Part shown: piece by piece, positions 3,122 to 15,064 of the stretch
How the letters are laid out: each line of letters starts with the position of its first letter
Position numbering within the stretch: position 1 is the stretch's first letter
Assembly: GCA_903875455.1 (NCBI GenBank)
Contig: CAIQWF010000086.1
Coordinates: forward strand, 1-16,794
Origin: an uncultured Pseudomonadota bacterium
Lineage (GTDB): Bacteria; Pseudomonadota; Gammaproteobacteria; Methylococcales; Methylomonadaceae
Length of the DNA stretch: 16,794 nt
Reading direction: 5' to 3'
Notes under the pieces: model-generated
Told to the model about the DNA's origin: nothing
The model's input: the letters and a program-made list of their open reading frames with translations, nothing else
The model's database searches: none
Position numbers and translations under genes: made by a program

Positions 3122-5293
3122 ATGAAAATGCGTCCCTTTACACATAAAAAGACCTTAGTTTTTTTTATGGTAGTTGCTGCTATAGTCGGCATATTTACCG
3201 ACTATAGCATGGGGACAAAAGTCGATTACTGGATACACGACTCTGCAATAGTTCATCAATATCGTAAAGAGTGGAAACACACTGGCATCGTAGTGCTGGA
3301 TAATGATGTTCCTTTCAGAGTCACCCGTATTCAGGCATTGCCACTGTTTGCCAGAGCAATTGAGCGTTTGGTTGCGGCAGGGGCGAAAGGCGTTTTTCTG
3401 GATGCCCAGGTATCCAAAGAAATAGAAGGGACAATGCCTTATGCCGTCTGTCTGGAGACTGACAGTAACCAACAAATACAAGCTCGCTGGTCTCGGCCGA
3501 AATGTGGTGTTAGTTCTGCAAATAAAAATGCCTGTACTATTACCAATAGCGAAGCAGGTAACGCACCACTAAAGATGAGCCCAGAAGCTATCGCCCGTTT
3601 TAGAATTGCGCCTTATCTGAATGACACTGATCACTTACCGGAGGATTTGCTTTATGACTTTGAAGCTGCTGCGGCAATTCCTGAAACTGGGGTAGTGGCC
3701 CATGAGCGTCTGGTGAGCAGATTATCTTCACCTATGGGCAGATGGCTGGATATGAGTGATGACCACGCTATTTTTCAACTAGCCAGTTTATTAAATCCTG
3801 AGAAAATTGCCAAGTTATACGAAAAAAATCCTTTATTGGACGAAAACTGTGATAACAATAGAAGATGTCGGCGAATACGATTAAGCAAGCCTATTCATGA
3901 TATCAATATAAAAAACAATCAGTTAATTTTGCCACTCAGCCAGTTAGCCTCCTGCAATAATACAATTGCCAACAAAACAGCAGCTTTGCTGAAAAATAAA
4001 TTAGTCATTTTACAAGTAGCAGGCCCTGCAGAAGCCACTGACATCATTGTAACACCAATGACCACCGCATTGTTTAGCCCTCAAATGATGACCCCTGGAG
4101 CGCAATATCTGGTCGATGAAATAGAAACTTTACTGAATCAAGATTATCCACAACAACCACCGCAAGCGGTGCGGATTCTGCTATTTATTTGTGCAGCAGC
4201 GTCAAGCGTTTGGCTAGGTGCTTATTTTTCTCTGGCTTTTTTGCTATTGAGTGCCACCGCTATTTTTATGATCATGGCCGCACTGTGCTTTTTTTATCCC
4301 ATAGTGCAATTATGGCCAGTCACAGCAGTCATGGTGACTTATTCTTTCGGTGCTTTGCAAATAGTCTCGATGCAGCTAATTTTAGGCGGCAGAAAAGGCA
4401 AAATATTATCGGAAATTTTGCCTAGACAGGTACTTGACCAACTCGAAAAAGTAGACTCGTTCAGGAGTAAACAATGCAATGTTGTAGTGCTGATGAGCGA
4501 CCTTGCAGGCTATACCACGGTCACAGAATTGTTAAAAAAGCCAGAGTATGTCATGGACCTGATGAACGACTATTTAGGCAGCACATCGATAGTGTTACAA
4601 AAAGAATACAATGGTATTTTGGAGGCTTATGTAGGAGATATGGTTTGTTATTACTGGGAATATGAAGAAGAAGAAAAACTTGCTGTTTATAAACAGGTTT
4701 TATCTGCAGCCATCAAATTATCAATTTTACAAAAAAACTTTTTCTCCTCAGTTGCTGAACGATATAAAGAATTATTAACACCGGAAGTACTTAAAGAAAT
4801 TAGCATTCTCATTAATGCCGGTATCGGTATTACTGCAGGCACTGTCGTTAAAGGTAATCTAGGTCCTAAAACAGGATTGAAAAAGTTTGCTATTTTAGGC
4901 GACCCTATTAATTTGGCTTCAAGGGTTGAAAGTTTAACCCGTCATTTTAACACTGAAATTATTGTTACAGGTGACTTTGCCGAAGCGATTACAGGAGATG
5001 AAAACTTAGCAGTTAGGCGGTTAGGAGCAATAACAGTGAAAGGAAGGCTTGTGCCGGAAGTGCTATATGCGCTAGGACAAAAAAGCGATCCCAGATTCAT
5101 GGCGGAAAACATAAACGCATGGGAACAATGGATTGCCGAAATAGAAAAAAAAGCTAATGCCAAAAACACTGCCAATGCCCGCATTATAGCCGCCTGCCCT
5201 ACAATTTATAGCAAAGACTACAAAACGGTTCTGGATTGGAGGGAAAAAGGGGTAATGAATGAAAATGGCGTTTGGCAATTGCACGAAAAATAA
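3122..5293 (+). CDS. Membrane-bound class III adenylate/guanylate cyclase with an N-terminal CHASE2-type sensor (TM, ~310-aa periplasmic domain, 3 TM, cyclase, ~100-aa C-terminal extension)
   Basis: 723-aa ORF. The N-terminal TM helix is TLVFFMVVAAIVGIFTDY. A long extracytoplasmic region follows, then a hydrophobic block (LLFICAAASSVWLGAYFSLAFLLLSATAIFMIMAALCFFYPIVQLWPVTAVMVTYSFGALQIVSMQLILGG). The class III cyclase core motifs are present: VVVLMSDLAGYT (metal Asp), AYVGDMV (second Asp), TAGTVVKGNLG and GDPINLASRVESL (transition-state Asn/Arg). This topology matches CHASE2-cyclase proteins. Confidence 0.75.
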   Translation: MKMRPFTHKKTLVFFMVVAAIVGIFTDYSMGTKVDYWIHDSAIVHQYRKEWKHTGIVVLDNDVPFRVTRIQALPLFARAIERLVAAGAKGVFLDAQVSKEIEGTMPYAVCLETDSNQQIQARWSRPKCGVSSANKNACTITNSEAGNAPLKMSPEAIARFRIAPYLNDTDHLPEDLLYDFEAAAAIPETGVVAHERLVSRLSSPMGRWLDMSDDHAIFQLASLLNPEKIAKLYEKNPLLDENCDNNRRCRRIRLSKPIHDINIKNNQLILPLSQLASCNNTIANKTAALLKNKLVILQVAGPAEATDIIVTPMTTALFSPQMMTPGAQYLVDEIETLLNQDYPQQPPQAVRILLFICAAASSVWLGAYFSLAFLLLSATAIFMIMAALCFFYPIVQLWPVTAVMVTYSFGALQIVSMQLILGGRKGKILSEILPRQVLDQLEKVDSFRSKQCNVVVLMSDLAGYTTVTELLKKPEYVMDLMNDYLGSTSIVLQKEYNGILEAYVGDMVCYYWEYEEEEKLAVYKQVLSAAIKLSILQKNFFSSVAERYKELLTPEVLKEISILINAGIGITAGTVVKGNLGPKTGLKKFAILGDPINLASRVESLTRHFNTEIIVTGDFAEAITGDENLAVRRLGAITVKGRLVPEVLYALGQKSDPRFMAENINAWEQWIAEIEKKANAKNTANARIIAACPTIYSKDYKTVLDWREKGVMNENGVWQLHEK

Positions 5294-5364: not shown

Positions 5365-7227
5365 GTGATTATAATTTTGAAAAAACTCAAGTTAATAAAA
5401 TCAAGCAGGCAACATAATCAGCCGCAAACTATCCCAGACATTTTTGATCAGGCTTTTGAATTACACCAACAAAGACAATTTCAACAAGCGGAAATTTTGT
5501 ATCAGAAAGTATTAAGGAAACAACCCCAACATTTCGATGCGCTTCATTTATTAGGCGTACTTGCCAAACAAAAAGGCCAAAATCAGCGTGCAGTCGATTT
5601 AATCAGTCTCGCAATCAAGATAAATCCTAACATTGCTATTGCTCATTCAAATTTAGGTGTAGCCCTTTATGATATGCAGCTGTTTGAAAAAGCAATCGCT
5701 AGTTATGATAATGCTTTGGCCATCAATCCTGATAATGCAGAAGCATTGTCCAATCGAGGCAATGCCTTGCAAAACCTCAATCGTCATGAAGAAGCATTAG
5801 TCAACTATAATCGCGCTTTAACTATCAGCCCTAATTATTTTGATGCCCTCTACAATCGAGGCAATGCTCTACAAAATCTGGAGCGTTATAATGAAGCCCT
5901 TGATAGCTATAACCGAGCTTTAATTATTAAGCCTAATGATCCTAGCATACTATGCAACCGTGGCAACACTTTGCAAAGTCTCAAACGCTATGAGGAGGCA
6001 CTTACTATTTATGATCAAGCCTTGGCTATCAATGAAAATTATGCAAAAGCACTCTTCAACCGTGGAAGCGTACTACGCTTTTTGCATCGACTTGATGAAG
6101 CTCTGGTTAGCTATAACCGTGCTCTAGCTATTCAACCTGATTCTGCAGAAGTGCTTTATAATCTTGGAAATTTGTTCTATTTTGAAGGAAAAGCAGAAGC
6201 GGCAATCGAATATTATCTGCAAGCTATTGCTCTTAAAAATGACTATTTTGAAGCACGTTACGCATTAGGTTTTCTGTTACTTTCCTTAGGAAAGTTCAAA
6301 GAAGGATGGCAATATTATGAAGCTAGATATAATCCGAATATCCAAAATAAAAATACCATTGCACCTAACTTTCAATTTCCTCAGTGGCAAGGTGAATCGG
6401 TTATAGGTAAAACTTTAGTTATTTGGGGAGAGCAAGGCTTTGGAGATGAAATCCAGTTTTGTCGCTATGTATCTGTTCTTAAATCCCAGGGTGCAGCTTA
6501 TATTAGTTGGGTATGTAAAAAACCTCTCAAAGCTTTGTTTAAAACTTTAGAAGCCGTTGATAATGTTCTTTCTGTGGAAAATGCAAGCTCAATCCTTCGG
6601 CACGATTATTGGACTTTTGCATTAAGCATCCCGCTGCATTGCAAAACTACACTTGATAATATTCCGGCAACAGTCCCTTACCTTTATGCAAACCCAGAAA
6701 AAATAACCACAATTACATCCAAGTTAAGTTCTATGAATGAGCTTAAAATAGGTCTTTGTTGGAAAGGAAACCCTAATTTTCAAAATGATGCTGAACGCTC
6801 ACCCGGTATCGACTACTTCAGGCCTTTATTTAAACTGACTGGAATAAAGTTTTTCACCTTACAGCCTGACACTCGTGACGAGTTCCTTGCAGCTACAGAC
6901 AATGCAGGCGTTGATTTTGGACGTGAACTTGATAAAAGCAGTTTTGAAGAAGCAGCCGCTTTAATTATGAACCTTGATCTGGTGATTACCAGTTGTACCT
7001 CTATTGCTCATTTAGCAGGTGCTTTAAATAAGCCGGTCTGGATTGTTTTACCCTTTAGTGCTGACTGGCGATGGCTAACTAACAGGGAAGACAGTCCTTG
7101 GTATCCAAACACACGCCTCTTTCGACAATCTCAACGTGGTAATTGGAGCGAAGTTATTCAGCATATAGAAAAAAAATTGAAAGAAGTCGTCTTAGGAAAA
7201 AGTCAGATTATATGGCCTCTTTCGTAA
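5365..7227 (+). CDS. TPR-repeat protein with a C-terminal glycosyltransferase family 9 (heptosyltransferase-fold)-like domain
   Basis: 620-aa ORF. At least 7 tandem 34-aa TPR units are visible, with the recurring pattern A.YNRGNALQNL.R..EAL.SYNRAL.I.P. The C-terminal ~230 aa carry a GT9-like motif, DLVITSCTSIAHLAGALNKPVWIVLPFSADWRW, comparable to the WaaC/WaaF motif DSGPMHLAAALG.P. There is no in-frame ATG at the 5' end, so the most upstream candidate start is GTG at 5365. Confidence 0.65.
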   Translation: MIIILKKLKLIKSSRQHNQPQTIPDIFDQAFELHQQRQFQQAEILYQKVLRKQPQHFDALHLLGVLAKQKGQNQRAVDLISLAIKINPNIAIAHSNLGVALYDMQLFEKAIASYDNALAINPDNAEALSNRGNALQNLNRHEEALVNYNRALTISPNYFDALYNRGNALQNLERYNEALDSYNRALIIKPNDPSILCNRGNTLQSLKRYEEALTIYDQALAINENYAKALFNRGSVLRFLHRLDEALVSYNRALAIQPDSAEVLYNLGNLFYFEGKAEAAIEYYLQAIALKNDYFEARYALGFLLLSLGKFKEGWQYYEARYNPNIQNKNTIAPNFQFPQWQGESVIGKTLVIWGEQGFGDEIQFCRYVSVLKSQGAAYISWVCKKPLKALFKTLEAVDNVLSVENASSILRHDYWTFALSIPLHCKTTLDNIPATVPYLYANPEKITTITSKLSSMNELKIGLCWKGNPNFQNDAERSPGIDYFRPLFKLTGIKFFTLQPDTRDEFLAATDNAGVDFGRELDKSSFEEAAALIMNLDLVITSCTSIAHLAGALNKPVWIVLPFSADWRWLTNREDSPWYPNTRLFRQSQRGNWSEVIQHIEKKLKEVVLGKSQIIWPLS

Positions 7228-8675: not shown

Positions 8676-9023
8676 ATGCCTTATTTAAATCTGACTACCA
8701 ATATTTCTGTTTCCGCAACTGAAACTTCCGAGCTGCTAAGCCAGTTTTCACAACTTCTGGCTCAAAAAACAGGCAAGCCAGAAAGTTATGTGATGGTGGA
8801 GATGACTACTGACAAACCGATGTTATTTGCCGGAAACAACAAACCGTTAGCGTACATCGAATGTAAGAGTATTGGACTAAGCATTTCGCAAACTAAACCT
8901 TTAGCCGCCGCTATTTGTCAGTTATTGCAAACTACTTTGCAGATTGATTCAGAACGAGTTTATATCGAGTTTAGTGATTGCAAAGCTGATTACTGGGGCT
9001 GGAACAGCTCAACATTTGGTTAA
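8676..9023 (+). CDS. Macrophage migration inhibitory factor (MIF)-family tautomerase homologue
   Basis: 115-aa ORF, MPYLNLTTNISVS...TGKPESYVMVEM...ECKSIGLSIS...RVYIEFSD...GWNSSTFG. Several MIF features are conserved. Pro2 is the catalytic Pro1 after Met removal. Lys32 sits in the TGKP motif. The SIG motif is present. The C-terminal GWNSSTF is almost identical to mammalian MIF GWNNSTFA. A GGAG site lies 8 nt upstream of the ATG. Confidence 0.8.
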   Translation: MPYLNLTTNISVSATETSELLSQFSQLLAQKTGKPESYVMVEMTTDKPMLFAGNNKPLAYIECKSIGLSISQTKPLAAAICQLLQTTLQIDSERVYIEFSDCKADYWGWNSSTFG

Positions 9024-9164: not shown

Positions 9165-10871
9165 TTATTTGATTTCTGCCTGGTTGTCGAGCTTTTTAAA
9201 AAATCCCTTTAAACCAGCTAGAGTTGACTTATTTTCACTGGCAACCTCTTCAGATTGAGTTTGTTTTACTGGTTTGGATTTTTTTGCGTCTGAAGGATTT
9301 AGCGGTTCTACAACCTCTGCCTGTTTGTCCAGTTTTTTAAAAAATCCTTTTAAGCCTCGATTCGAAGAATCTTTATTTTCAGCAACACTTTTTTCTTCAA
9401 CTTGTGCTTGTTTTTTAGGCTGGGATTTTTTTGGCTCCACCGATTCTGATGGTTTTGACGATGCTGTTTCTTCGGTTTTTTTCGCCAGAATTTTTTGATA
9501 AAAGCCCTTAAATTGATCCGGCAAATGCTTGGCTTTATCTGCTATTTCGTCAATCTGCTGTTTCGCAGGATTGAGCATATCTACCGGACTCGCCTGAGTT
9601 TTCTCTACCGTCTTTTTCACTTCTTTGCGTTTCGGATTAAGCTTTTGTTCCAGCTCGATAATCCGTGCTTCCGCTTGCTCCTGTTTGGCTATGATAGCAG
9701 CCGGAATGGTTTTTAATGGCGAGTTTTTATCACTCATCAGCGCTTTTTTAACTTCCAGGTCATATTCCAACCGGAAAATATAATTGCCTTGTTCTGCTAA
9801 CGCCGTATTTAGCTCAGCAATTTTTTGGGTTAACTCCAACTCAACTGTCGCTGGTTTTTTCGCATTTTTAGCCACCAATTCTTTAATAGCAGCTTCACTT
9901 TCCAATAGTTTTCTCTCTAAAGCCTGATTGCTTTCTTGCAGTCTTTCGATAGTTTGTTGCTGTGCCAAAGTTTCTGGTGATCTTGCCCCGGCTGATTTTG
10001 CGGAGCGGTCTGTCAGTCTTTCTTCCAGTCTTTCCAATTGCAGAGTTGCACCTTCCAATTGTTGTTGCTGTTCAAGTTTGCTTTGCTGAGCCTGTGTAAG
10101 TGCTGTTTGCAGTTCTTGTAATTTTTTTTCTGCTTGTTGCTGTTGCTCAACCTGGTTTTGCTGGCTTTGTTGACGTTCTGAGTGTAATTCCTGCAAAGCC
10201 GTTTCTAATTGCTGCTGTTGTTGCACTTCAGCCTGTTGTAGTTGTGCAAATTCTGTTTGAAGCTGTTGCAAATTTTGCTCTAACTGTTGTTGCGTGGCTT
10301 TTGCCTGTTCTGCAAGCTCTGTTTGTTGCATCAAAAATTTTTGCTCTATCTGGCTAACTTGTGCTTTTTGCTGGTTTAGTTCAGTCGTTAATTCGTTTAT
10401 CGCTGCGTCTTTCTCGGCTAAACTGACTTCCCAGCTTTGTTTCAGACTTTCCTGCTTATTCTCAGATTCCTGTAATCGCTGGGTTAATTGTGCAAATTCC
10501 TGATTTTTTTGATTGAGTGATAACTCCAACATTGAAGTCCGTTTTGCTTCAGTTTCCGCAGCCTGTTTGTCTTTTTCTAATTCTTGGTTATTTTTTTCTA
10601 ATTCTGCAATCTGCGCAGCTTGCTCCGTTATTTTAAGTTCTGTCAGCTGGTTTTTTTGTTGCAAACTATTCAAATCAGTACCCAGCTGCATTCGCTGTTG
10701 CTCAGAACTGGTAATTTCTTTTTCTAAGGTGGTGCGCAACTGGTTTAATCGTGACCTGCTTGCTGCTGCCATCATTAACCAAATTAAAATAGCCGACACC
10801 ACAAAACTTATTGCTGCGGCTAACAGCGTGGTTTCCAGATTATATTCCAGACCAAGTAAAAAATCGGGCAT
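9165..10871 (-). CDS. Membrane-anchored coiled-coil protein, Q/E-rich, with C-terminal tandem 48-aa repeats
   Basis: 568-aa ORF with a GGAGA site 7 nt upstream of the ATG. The N-terminal TM helix is LLAAAISFVVSAILIWLMMAAA. About 400 aa of heptad-like, Q/E/L-rich sequence follow, including poly-Q runs. The C-terminus carries two copies of GLKGFFKKLD(K/N)QAE(V/I) spaced 48 aa apart, which corresponds to a diverged ~144-nt tandem DNA repeat at about 9170..9460. Confidence 0.6.
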   Translation of the reverse strand: MPDFLLGLEYNLETTLLAAAISFVVSAILIWLMMAAASRSRLNQLRTTLEKEITSSEQQRMQLGTDLNSLQQKNQLTELKITEQAAQIAELEKNNQELEKDKQAAETEAKRTSMLELSLNQKNQEFAQLTQRLQESENKQESLKQSWEVSLAEKDAAINELTTELNQQKAQVSQIEQKFLMQQTELAEQAKATQQQLEQNLQQLQTEFAQLQQAEVQQQQQLETALQELHSERQQSQQNQVEQQQQAEKKLQELQTALTQAQQSKLEQQQQLEGATLQLERLEERLTDRSAKSAGARSPETLAQQQTIERLQESNQALERKLLESEAAIKELVAKNAKKPATVELELTQKIAELNTALAEQGNYIFRLEYDLEVKKALMSDKNSPLKTIPAAIIAKQEQAEARIIELEQKLNPKRKEVKKTVEKTQASPVDMLNPAKQQIDEIADKAKHLPDQFKGFYQKILAKKTEETASSKPSESVEPKKSQPKKQAQVEEKSVAENKDSSNRGLKGFFKKLDKQAEVVEPLNPSDAKKSKPVKQTQSEEVASENKSTLAGLKGFFKKLDNQAEIK

Positions 10872-13064: not shown

Positions 13065-13141
13065 TGGCGGAGTGGACGGGGCTCGAACCCGCGACCCCCG
13101 GCGTGACAGGCCGGTATTCTAACCAACTGAACTACCACTCC
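13065..13141 (-). tRNA. tRNA-Asp (anticodon GTC)
   Basis: The reverse complement reads GGAGTGGTAGTTCAGTTGGTTAGAATACCGGCCTGTCACGCCGGGGGTCGCGGGTTCGAGCCCCGTCCACTCCGCCA. It has a cloverleaf, a GTC anticodon in the loop CCUGUCACG, and a 3' CCA. It is near-identical to E. coli tRNA-Asp. Confidence 0.95.
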
Positions 13142-13147
13142 TTAATC

Positions 13148-13223
13148 TGGTGGGTGCTGAGGGGTTCGAACCCCCGACCCTCGCCTTGTAAGGGCGATGC
13201 TCTCCCAACTGAGCTAAGCACCC
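13148..13223 (-). tRNA. tRNA-Val (anticodon TAC)
   Basis: The reverse complement reads GGGTGCTTAGCTCAGTTGGGAGAGCATCGCCCTTACAAGGCGAGGGTCGGGGGTTCGAACCCCTCAGCACCCACCA. The anticodon loop is CUUACAA, it ends in 3' CCA, and it is very similar to E. coli tRNA-Val(UAC). The plus-strand 64-aa ORF at 13064..13258 is an artefact of these tRNAs. Confidence 0.95.
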
Positions 13224-13231
13224 GACTAAAG

Positions 13232-13254
13232 AAGATGCTAGTTTACAGCATCTT
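13232..13254 (-). other. 8-bp hairpin overlapping the hupB stop codon, directly upstream of tRNA-Val; possible processing site or attenuator
   Basis: AAGATGCT-agtttac-AGCATCTT. The hupB TAG stop at 13238..13240 lies inside the stem, 15 nt before the 5' end of tRNA-Val. There is no strong U-tract. Confidence 0.35.
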
Positions 13255-13510
13255 TTAAACTTTTACCAGCTTTAAATGCAGGAATCTTTGCTGAAGGGAT
13301 AGTAATCTCTGCTCCGGTCTGTGGATTTCTGCCTTTGCGCTCTGCTCTTTCTTTCACAGAAAACGTCCCAAACCCAACCAGAGCAACGGATTCACCTTTT
13401 CCAAGCGCAGTTTTTACCGCATCAAGAAAACCATCTAAAGCTTTTCCTGCATCTGATTTTGTTAAGTCAGAAGCGGCAGCAATTGCGTCTATTAGTTCTG
13501 ATTTATTCAT
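13238..13510 (-). CDS. hupB: DNA-binding protein HU-beta
   Basis: 90-aa protein [11 protein letters not shown]...[45 protein letters not shown], a classic HU fold with an Arg/Pro-rich DNA-binding arm. An AAGGGG site sits 6 nt upstream of the ATG at 13510. The track ORF has a 21-codon spurious N-terminal extension. Confidence 0.9.
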
Positions 13511-13874
13511 TATTTTCCCCTTAGGTAGTTTGTTTATTGTGTATTCTGTGAAAAAACATGCCAAATTCCCCACGTTAAGTGTGCATAACGGTAAGAACCT
13601 GCGCTATTTATATCAACGCCCTTATGGAGTGTCAAGCTTTTAAACCGGCTAGAAACCTTGTCTGCTAAGGTTTTGCCGATTTTTGATAGTCTTTTCACAA
13701 TTGCATTTACAAGCTGATAACCACTAAATTGAAATTCTAGTTCTCACTCAATTTCCCCAATTGAATGTTTAAATTTATTACATGCACTGTCTTTTTTACC
13801 AAGCATTAACAATCTACACTGATTCAATTAAGTTATTTTTTTCCATTCATTAAATTTTTTTACTTGGGGGAAGC

Positions 13875-14924
13875 ATGTGCGCTGAACAACAACGCTGGCG
13901 CGGCCTTATGTTGGGAACCGCTGTCGGTGACTCAGTAGGCTTGGCGGCTGAAGGCATATCGCACCAACGCAATGCCAAAATATTTCGTCAGCAATGGCGG
14001 CAGCGCTTTTTTATCCGTTGGGGCATGTGCAGTGATGATACGGAACACACTGTCTTTGTCGCACAAGCTTTATTGGCTCATCCGACCCAGGTTGAGTCTT
14101 TTCGCAACCGTTTGGCGTGGAGTTTGCGCTGCTGGTTTCTGGCATTACCTGCTGGCATTGGTTTGGCGACCGGCAAAGCCATCATTAAATTATGGTTAGG
14201 ATTTAATCCGAAACACAGTGGTGTTTATTCCGCCGGGAATGGTCCTGCGATGCGGGTTGCGCCCATTGGTGCATTTTTCGCCCAACAACCAGCTTTGTTA
14301 AACGAATATCTGACCGCCTCAACCTTAATCACCCATACCGATAAAAAAGCCTTAATCGGGGCAAAAGCTATTGCAGAAACAATTGCCTGGGTATGGCGTG
14401 AAAATTTCACTAAAAAACCAGCGTTAGCTGATTTTATTGCGCTGTTGGGTCAAATTGATGCCGATACAGAATGGCAATCGTTGGTGAATCGGATTGAACA
14501 CGGGCTACAGCAAAATTTAACTGTCAATCAGTTTGCTGATTTGATGGGCTTAAGTCACGGAATTACCGGCTATATCTATCATACAGTGCCGATGGTGCTC
14601 TATGCCTGGTACAAACATTTTGGAGATTTTGCGCAAACTTTAACCAGCATTTGGGATTGTGGCGGTGATACTGATACAACCGGGGCAATTGTCGGAGCTT
14701 TAGCTGGCAGTGTGGCCGGTGAGCAAGGGATTCCGGCTGACTGGATAAACGCGATTTTGGAATATCCGCATTCGGTGAGTTTTTTACAAAAGCTGGCAGA
14801 CCGGCTTGCTAAACGTGAACATAAGCCGGTGTTTTGTTTTGCCCCCGCCATCATTTTGCGGAATTTATTTTTCTTGGGCGTAGTATTGCTGCATGGTTTT
14901 AGACGCTTGTTGCCACCTTATTAA
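13875..14924 (+). CDS. ADP-ribosylglycohydrolase family protein (DraG/ARH-like) with a hydrophobic C-terminal tail
   Basis: 349-aa ORF. ARH signature motifs are present: GTAVGDSVG near the N-terminus, CSDDTEHT, and C-terminal GGDTDTTGAIVGALAGSVAGEQGIPADW. A GGGGGAAG site lies 6 nt upstream of the ATG. The last ~30 residues (VFCFAPAIILRNLFFLGVVLLHGF) are strongly hydrophobic, which is unusual for this soluble enzyme family. Confidence 0.75.
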   Translation: MCAEQQRWRGLMLGTAVGDSVGLAAEGISHQRNAKIFRQQWRQRFFIRWGMCSDDTEHTVFVAQALLAHPTQVESFRNRLAWSLRCWFLALPAGIGLATGKAIIKLWLGFNPKHSGVYSAGNGPAMRVAPIGAFFAQQPALLNEYLTASTLITHTDKKALIGAKAIAETIAWVWRENFTKKPALADFIALLGQIDADTEWQSLVNRIEHGLQQNLTVNQFADLMGLSHGITGYIYHTVPMVLYAWYKHFGDFAQTLTSIWDCGGDTDTTGAIVGALAGSVAGEQGIPADWINAILEYPHSVSFLQKLADRLAKREHKPVFCFAPAIILRNLFFLGVVLLHGFRRLLPPY

Positions 14925-14973
14925 TGACTGCCAATCTTTTTAAGTAACAGAACAAAAATTCTTCGGTATTTAG

Positions 14974-15001
14974 TTGCTAGGCTGGAGTCCCAACTCTTGA
15001 G
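14974..15001. other. Imperfect palindromic hairpin between convergent genes
   Basis: GGAGTCCCAACT-cttg-AGTTGAGACTCC: a 12-bp stem with one mismatch, followed by AAAAAA on the plus strand. It has the same GGAGT...ACTCC outer stem as the hairpin at 9040..9066. Confidence 0.4.
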
Positions 15002-15064
15002 TTGAGACTCCAAAAAACACGGGAAAATTTATGTTGAACCACTTAGAACTGGCGGTCGTGAACT

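Follow-up and report, generated by a model that had tools for sequence, protein, structure and literature searches.

A probable ADP-ribosylglycohydrolase with a conserved hydrophobic C-terminal extension, encoded next to a vault protein-like gene in an uncultured Pseudomonadota bacterium

Does a bacterial ADP-ribosylglycohydrolase (ARH) with a strongly hydrophobic C terminus act at a membrane, and is it functionally tied to the major vault protein (MVP) homolog encoded next to it? These questions are raised by a 16,794-nucleotide contig of an uncultured Pseudomonadota bacterium (CAIQWF010000086.1 of NCBI GenBank assembly GCA_903875455.1), the whole of which was analyzed and is referred to below as the window. 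ARHs are the less-studied erasers of ADP-ribosylation, and the two bacterial ARHs discussed here to which roles have been assigned, DraG and Tri1, are soluble enzymes that each have a cognate writer or toxin as a partner. An earlier note on the window had recognized the enzyme family and the hydrophobic tail and had suggested a tail anchor, a link with the vault-like gene, or an effector acting on a host. On the evidence described below, the interest of the locus rests on the conserved tail and on a module of SPFH and NAD-kinase-like genes that accompanies the tailed ARH elsewhere, and not on the MVP neighbor.

The ARH and its C-terminal extension

The family assignment made in the earlier note is borne out. 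The open reading frame (ORF), which begins with ATG, matches the Pfam family ADP_ribosyl_GH (PF03747) with 188.7 bits (cutoff, 26.2; E = 2.4e-55), and the match runs from residue 10 to residue 289, corresponding to profile positions 1 to 287 of 287. All of the motifs quoted for the protein were located (GDSVG, residues 18 to 22; SDDTEHT, 53 to 59; GGDTDTTGAIVGALAG, 263 to 278; and GIPADW, 285 to 290). An AlphaFold2 (AF2) model built on 112 homologs has a mean predicted local distance difference test (pLDDT) score of 94.9 and a predicted TM (pTM) score of 0.94 and shows the all-alpha ARH fold; Foldseek matched it best to 1t5j (E = 3.3e-13), followed by ARH3 and DraG, all with a probability of 1.00. 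In a search of the PDB with the family profile, MJ1187 of Methanocaldococcus jannaschii (1t5j; E = 1.9e-35) ranked first, followed by DraG, a Thermus ARH, and ARH3.

The metal site is intact and comprises E26 (after GDxxG), S53-D54-D55-T56, and D265-T266-D267-T268. These motifs align with those of MJ1187 and DraG and are invariant or near-invariant across the family (alignments of 22 and 112 sequences), and the objection that the protein might be a pseudoenzyme therefore fails. The gene is under purifying selection, with a nonsynonymous-to-synonymous substitution ratio (dN/dS) of about 0.1 (0.08 to 0.10 against three relatives), and the tail is constrained as well. Taken together, the residues and the predicted fold suggest that the window ARH is a genuine and probably active ADP-ribose hydrolase. 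An exact-peptide scan of the genome collection with the window ARH returned a single distant locus (L001).

The last 30 or so residues are indeed strongly hydrophobic. The segment VFCFAPAIILRNLFFLGVVLLHGFRRLL (residues 319 to 346) contains the only 19-residue Kyte-Doolittle windows of the protein that exceed 1.6: the maximum is 2.15 at residue 321, values above 1.6 are confined to residues 318 to 343, and the next best value is 1.53 at residue 86. No signal peptide was detected at the N terminus, nor was a second hydrophobic segment found in the scan of the whole protein. The solved chains of MJ1187, DraG, and ARH3 stop before the tail, in agreement with the view that canonical ARHs lack it.

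Orthologs keep this tail. It is present in 112 of 112 aligned homologs (53 to 83% identity), and the best 120 homologs in the same identity range all align through the last residue. Homologs with the tail span Desulfobacterota, Planctomycetota, Gemmatimonadota, Cyanobacteria, and Gammaproteobacteria, with Desulfobacterales, Planctomycetota, Gemmatimonadales, Competibacter, and Cyanobacterium aponinum among the named sources. Even a plasmid-encoded ARH of Pseudomonas sp. GXZC (NZ_CP114116.1), with an overall identity of only 33%, retains the ending ...VIRNIALFFIVVGHVGRRMLPPYWS. The family consensus is PVxYFWPxxxxRNxxFLxxVLLHGFRRLLPPY-COOH, and the architecture is that of a docked linker, P-V-x-[Y]-F-[W]-P, followed by a helix (residues 324 to 345). 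R329, N330, and R344 are invariant in the homolog alignments, and H340, G341, R343, P347, P348, and Y349 are conserved in >95% of the sequences. In the plasmid copy (L093, 6896-8032), the kept pattern is RN...H.GRR.LPPY, and the neighbors are mostly hypothetical genes.

A query made up solely of the 54 C-terminal residues was also run against 1.84 billion cluster representatives. Of the 163 proteins matched, nearly all carried the match at or a few residues from the C terminus; among the 150 of these 163 that were listed, 94 had an upstream ARH domain, and the remainder were short gene fragments. Because the tail matched only the C terminus of ARH domains, it is a subfamily-defining ARH extension and not a mobile module. 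The distribution points to a widespread, large, and uncharacterized bacterial ARH subfamily defined by this 32-residue extension, slowly evolving and mostly standing alone. Thousands of members of the family, at 50 to 60% identity, occur in free-living environmental bacteria.

Comparison with characterized relatives places the window ARH apart from each of them. MJ1187 is the closest PDB match (TMt, 0.84). It has the GDxxG...E, DDTE, and GGDTD motifs in common with the window ARH, as well as a helix equivalent to residues 301 to 313, but ends at about the position that aligns with residue 318 of the window ARH. DraG (3g9d, 2woc, and 3o5t) agrees with the window ARH in its fold and in its binuclear metal-site motifs; however, the window ARH scores only 81 bits against the DraG model TIGR02662 (cutoff, 337), and the Pfam scan of all window ORFs revealed neither draT nor nif genes. 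Tri1, the ADP-ribosylarginine hydrolase immunity protein of Serratia (NF041672), belongs to the same superfamily but is matched weakly (E = 3.1e-11; 42.7 bits, with a cutoff of 490), and no Tre1-like toxin gene neighbors the window ARH. On these equivalog scores, orthology with DraG or Tri1 was rejected. ARH3 (ADPRHL2), a hydrolase of Ser-ADP-ribose, poly-ADP-ribose, and O-acetyl-ADP-ribose, resembles the window ARH in fold (TM of about 0.71 to 0.75) and in its acidic metal ligands (of the D77/D78 and D314/D316 types, as named in the titles of PDB mutant entries). Unlike the window ARH, ARH3 is eukaryotic and soluble and has no C-terminal hydrophobic helix, and the two are about 20% identical.

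Possible roles of the extension

Per-column statistics showed that conservation along helix 324 to 345 has an alpha-helical periodicity (peak, 90 to 100 degrees). The conserved face comprises positions 329/330, 333/334, 337/338, 340/341, and 344/345. The remaining positions change freely within the set L, F, V, I, and A. The AF2 model assigns pLDDT values of about 95 to the linker and about 88 to the helix. The apolar core is bounded in the family by the invariant R-N and by H-G-F-R-R, and the longest run free of D, E, K, R, N, Q, and H is 11 residues in the window tail and 9 residues (median) in the family. A simple Hessa sum for membrane insertion comes out positive in every one of the 112 members (median, +4.7 kcal/mol), and the Wimley-White interfacial sum of the tail is favorable (median, -5.5 kcal/mol). 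Across the family, the tail is thus a poor transmembrane candidate, and we favor a docked helix, serving peripheral membrane or partner binding, over a tail anchor.

The full reading that we favor, although our confidence in it is evenly balanced, is that of a metal-dependent ARH/DraG-type hydrolase whose docked tail holds the enzyme peripherally at a membrane or another hydrophobic surface, the MVP neighbor being incidental. The PVxYFWP linker and one helix face (R329, N330, F333, L334, V337, L338, H340, G341, R344, and L345) would pack against either the catalytic domain or a conserved partner. On the other side of the helix, the face that is always hydrophobic but variable would form a hydrophobic patch together with the flanking arginines and aromatic residues. 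This patch would hold the enzyme on the membrane, on another hydrophobic surface, or on a partner, in a peripheral (i.e., monotopic) manner that does not cross the bilayer, and ADP-ribose would be removed there from a protein or from an ADP-ribose-containing small molecule. DraG offers a precedent for an ARH at the membrane, as its activity is controlled by membrane sequestration via GlnZ and AmtB (3o5t is the structure of the DraG-GlnZ complex). Unlike that of DraG, any membrane association of the window ARH would be an intrinsic property conferred by the tail and would not be mediated by PII and AmtB. The conserved hydrophobic module would thereby direct ADP-ribose removal to a membrane or other hydrophobic surface, and the tailed family offers a clean, testable handle on it.

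Several observations weigh against this proposal. The Kyte-Doolittle value passes the usual transmembrane threshold in the window ARH (2.15) and marginally so in the family (median, 1.69). Buried core segments of the same ARH score equally low on the interfacial scale. Docking of the tail is something we infer from pLDDT values and conservation alone. At the position of DraG D97, where MJ1187 keeps an Asp, the window ARH has G94 (PVD(97)VG aligns with PAG(94)IG), and this glycine is invariant in the 22-sequence alignment and near-invariant (>=90%) in the 112-sequence alignment; because of this replacement, the Arg-ADP-ribose chemistry of the window ARH may differ. About 85% of the loci in the neighborhood survey described below have no NAD-related neighbor. 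Finally, literature searches on membrane-tethered ARHs, on DUF1152, and on an SPFH/NAD-kinase/ARH neighborhood returned nothing relevant.

The tail might instead have no membrane role at all and serve as an intramolecular lid or an oligomerization helix that buries its hydrophobic face in a dimer or larger oligomer, perhaps regulating the active site. A protein-protein or intramolecular interface would be expected to look like the strictly conserved face, polar residues included. The confident AF2 placement and the absence of a conserved membrane-protein neighbor in the Pfam tally of neighbors are also in line with such a role. We nevertheless consider it unlikely, although worth keeping in mind: the opposite face is hydrophobic in every homolog but varies among L, F, V, I, and A, which is typical of lipid-facing positions rather than of specific interfaces, and the flanking arginine and aromatic residues fit interfacial binding.

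The tail anchor suggested earlier fared less well. In this scenario, residues from about 319 to 342 would form a single transmembrane helix, inserted posttranslationally, with the catalytic domain left on the cytoplasmic side and the final residues reaching the periplasm. The hydropathy maximum, the lack of an N-terminal signal or a second hydrophobic segment, and the position of the hydrophobic segment, which lies within 10 residues of the C terminus, are all as expected of a tail anchor. However, the invariant R329 and N330 would fall midspan, and insertion would require H340, R343, and R344, all of them invariant or nearly so, to pass through the bilayer; translocation of these three residues runs counter to the positive-inside rule. 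The short apolar runs and the uniformly positive insertion sums of the family point the same way, and the high pLDDT of the predicted linker is not what we would expect if the linker were a flexible tether, as in typical tail anchors. The more transmembrane-like look of the window lineage is due only to F320, C321, and A323, which stand where the consensus has R, Y, and W. We therefore regard a true tail anchor as improbable. A C-terminal sorting signal of the sortase or exosortase type was considered as well and rejected, since the protein lacks an N-terminal signal peptide and sorting signals of this kind are much less conserved than the helix.

SPFH, NAD-related, and MVP-like neighbors

The neighborhood survey consisted of a Pfam tally of 107 immediate neighbors and of searches of 80 metagenome loci with hidden Markov models (HMMs) of the module proteins. 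The tally revealed no universal partner; PhaC (8 neighbors), MsrA (6), ARH paralogs (5), Band_7 (3), and NUDIX (3) were recorded. In 11 of the 80 loci, about 9 of which are nonredundant, the tailed ARH is adjoined by a Band-7/SPFH protein without transmembrane segments (approximately 340 amino acids [aa]) and/or by an NAD-kinase-like protein (approximately 320 aa; weak match to NF010677). The NAD-kinase-like gene occurs in all 11 and the SPFH gene also in 8. These loci (L053, L060, L071, L074/L076, L085, L086, L042/L043, L052, and L082) fall into at least two separate clades of the neighbor-joining tree and show three gene orders. Some of the clusters add PncA (259 bits versus 174), a NudE-like NUDIX protein, Macro, DUF1152, a SIR2-like protein, a cREC-ARH fusion, or a tail-less ARH paralog.

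The combination of SPFH, NAD-kinase-like, and tailed ARH genes suggests an undescribed NAD/ADP-ribose module. Operon neighbors support a tie between the tailed ARH subfamily and NAD/ADP-ribose metabolism, because orthologs are operonic with PncA, NUDIX, Macro, SIR2-like, ARH paralog, NAD-kinase-like, and Band-7/SPFH genes. The SPFH-containing clusters also hint at a modest link between the tailed subfamily and SPFH-type scaffolds, to whose superfamily the MVP shoulder belongs. The ARG-centric systems described in section 3.8 of PMC9503650, with their Nudix/WYL regulators, phosphatases, and chaperones, have a different arrangement. PADLOC assigned neither the ARH nor the MVP-like protein nor the module proteins to a defense system, the exception being weak SIR2 hits in one neighbor.

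In one ARH clade, a phaC gene (polyhydroxyalkanoate [PHA] synthase) follows the tailed ARH gene on the same strand, at a distance of about 100 bp, in most of nine loci (L016, L021, L025, L026, L049, L050, L054, L059, and L061; the distance is 665 bp in L016). The surface of PHA granules may be another hydrophobic target that the tail could bind, or the arrangement may be plain lineage synteny.

The immediate convergent neighbor of the window ARH is, as had been stated, an MVP homolog (MVP_shoulder, E = 3.8e-27), and its Pfam matches comprise Vault_3, MVP_shoulder, and Band_7. The length of 527 aa first given for it does not hold: the frame runs on without a stop through the final complete codon of the window (16792), whereas full-length relatives measure 814 to 830 aa (819 aa in P0121, which is 90% identical), so that the gene is incomplete, cut by the contig end. 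Vault_3 scores 32.8 bits in the full-length P0121 (cutoff, 28.8) and 26.7 bits, i.e., below the cutoff, in the window fragment. Resemblance to the animal protein is distant: the repeat-plus-shoulder region matched rat and human MVP with an E value of 2.6e-5 when isolated, and full-length MVP-like queries gave no match in a phmmer search of the PDB. Across many phyla, full-length relatives (from Desulfobacterales, Polyangiaceae, Eremiobacterota, Bacteroidia, and "Ca. Venteria") are 55 to 90% identical, an unusually high conservation for a functionally uncharacterized bacterial protein. Bacterial MVP-like proteins form a large family that has already been described (Daly 2013, PMC3762200; Sokolskyi 2019, 10.1101/872010).

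Adjacency of the two genes was found in 3 of 8 close relatives of the window ARH. In L007, whose ARH is 81% identical, the C-terminal end of an MVP gene is likewise convergent with the ARH gene. In JGI sample 3300045051, the ARH gene (L002, 78% identical) and the MVP-like gene (L087, 90%) are each found at the end of a contig, and the two ends carry inverted copies of the terminus of an insertion sequence (IS; L002, 9040-9168, and L087, 12461-12639). The IS lies in the last ARH codon, replacing Y349 with SVHDKKTR, and accounts for the assembly breaks. The L087 end retains TTGCCGCCTTATTAA (LPPY-stop), after which come a 42-bp hairpin spacer and the MVP stop, and the pair is therefore conserved in this sample. 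The other five close relatives lack the pair. The closest of them all (L094; 83% identical) keeps hupB upstream and has a different convergent gene. The neighbor in L003 to L005 codes for a 385-aa protein that is unrelated and lacks a Pfam match, DUF8200 and FTHFS are present in L006, and L095 and L096 encode a PurD-like protein and an ABC-type ATPase, respectively (both read from the translation, unscanned). No MVP match was found in the remaining tailed-ARH loci that extend past the gene; many of the other contigs are too short to show a downstream gene. Conversely, none of four independent bacterial MVP loci (L088, L089, L091, and L092) has an ARH within 8 kb. A functional link between the two genes, which are convergent, is thus weak, and the MVP adjacency is most likely incidental, lineage-specific synteny and not a functional pair.

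The 140 bp and the shared hairpin reported between the two genes stand, the distance being exact; the hairpin, however, has no T-run. RNA folding of the spacer gave a z score of -3.96. Alignment with L007 and L087, in which the spacer is about 40 bp long, indicates an ancestral hairpin split in the window by an insert of about 100 bp. This insert (about 14943-15045) has its own hairpin and may be a small mobile or repeat element. The terminator scan did not report the inner hairpin, and a second copy of the insert was not found in the window.

A more ambitious account would pair the tailed ARH with SPFH-type cages, including the MVP-like protein, with the tail delivering the hydrolase to or into the assembly as a prokaryotic counterpart of PARP4 in the vault; we doubt it strongly. 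Equally doubtful is a related form, in which the enzyme would be a dedicated client or partner of SPFH-superfamily cages (Band-7 proteins in some clades and the MVP-like protein in the Methylobacter-like lineage) and the C-terminal helix the docking or targeting element. Three observations speak for such pairing: the tight convergent pair with a single hairpin of about 40 bp in L007 and L087, retained in the window; the recurrence of adjacent Band-7/SPFH and NAD-kinase-like genes across ARH clades and gene orders; and the fact that the MVP shoulder is itself an SPFH domain. As in the eukaryotic vault (MVP and PARP4), a protein with vault repeat, shoulder, and coiled coil adjoins an ADP-ribose enzyme. 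Unlike in the vault, the enzyme of the window is an eraser and not a PARP writer, the MVP-like protein belongs to a distant bacterial clade, and the linkage is unconserved; the Pfam scan of window ORFs detected no ADP-ribosyltransferase, PARP, or sirtuin. Convergent orientation rules out cotranscription, and the losses of the pair among close relatives (L094 keeps hupB and not MVP) and at the independent MVP loci count further against pairing. The HMMs of the module SPFH and NAD-kinase-like proteins matched nothing in the window at an E value of 1e-5, so that the SPFH model fails to detect the MVP-like protein and the NAD-kinase-like partner is absent. With about 30 independent contexts sampled, one chance SPFH neighbor is, by a rough estimate, not improbable. 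If the cage-client account were true, bacteria would possess an ADP-ribose cycle coupled to vault- or SPFH-type cages, a parallel to the PARP4-vault association of eukaryotes and one that might predate it.

Genomic setting and other genes of the window

The coordinates of the features discussed are given in Table 1. Upstream of the ARH gene, synteny with hupB is kept in L002 (a 108-aa HU gene) and in L094 (a 90-aa HU gene). The closest named relatives of the window PpiD are from Methylobacter (60 to 63% identity), which suggests a Methylobacter-like host lineage; Methylobacter is a free-living methanotroph. GC content is even across the region (about 0.38 to 0.46).

Table 1. Coordinates of features around the ARH gene in the window
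Feature	Position	Strand	Basis or remark
tRNA-Val(TAC) + tRNA-Asp(GTC), between hupB and ppiD	13065-13223	-	
hupB (HU), divergent upstream neighbor	13238..13510	-	Pfam Bac_DNA_binding, E 7e-35, residues 22-111 of listed ORF
Shine-Dalgarno-like run GGGGGAAG	13866..13873	+	Just 5' of ATG; read from sequence
ARH-family coding sequence, 349 aa + stop	13875..14924	+	ORF list; Pfam PF03747, E 2.4e-55; dN/dS 0.08-0.10
Predicted ADP-ribosylglycohydrolase catalytic domain, residues 10-289	13902..14741	+	Pfam envelope; MJ1187/DraG alignments; AF2; Foldseek
Subfamily-defining C-terminal extension, residues 318-349	14826..14921	+	Homolog alignments; column statistics; tail-only search; AF2
140-bp convergent spacer	14925..15064	.	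Ancestral ~40-bp hairpin (ACTGCCA..TGGCGGT arms) split by ~100-bp insert; L007/L087 alignment
Perfect-stem hairpin GGAGTCcCAACTC-TT-GAGTTGaGACTCC	14984..15011	.	Inside insert; A-run after, no T-run
Bacterial MVP-like gene, C-terminal ~575 codons	15065..16794	-	Vault_3 repeat + MVP_shoulder/SPFH + coiled coil; MVP_shoulder E 3.8e-27

The remaining suggestion, that the ARH is a secreted or translocated effector of an intracellular pathogen or part of an acquired eukaryote-like block that reverses host ADP-ribosylation, has the shared presence of MIF-like and MVP-like "eukaryote-like" genes in the window in its favor but is extremely improbable, because of the Methylobacter-like PpiD and the broad environmental distribution of both the ARH and the MVP-like families in free-living bacteria, together with the even GC content and the housekeeping context (a hupB-tRNA-ppiD cluster whose hupB link is common to relatives); the lack of a signal peptide on the ARH and the distance of the MVP-like shoulder from eukaryotic MVP add to this.

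Several other genes of the window were recorded in passing. A MIF/tautomerase-family protein of 115 aa, from another "eukaryote-like" family, is encoded at 8676-9023 (+; PF01187, E = 3.8e-23). The gene at 3122-5293 (+) encodes a fusion of a CHASE2-like sensor with an adenylate/guanylate cyclase domain, and that at 5365-7227 (+) encodes a TPR-repeat protein with a weak C-terminal match to glycosyltransferase 9 (22.2 bits; cutoff, 22.0). At 9165-10871 (-) lies a gene for a 568-aa, Gln/Glu-rich coiled-coil protein with no Pfam match, the C-terminal part of which contains direct repeats (41-nt and 40-nt units at a spacing of 141 to 147 nt).

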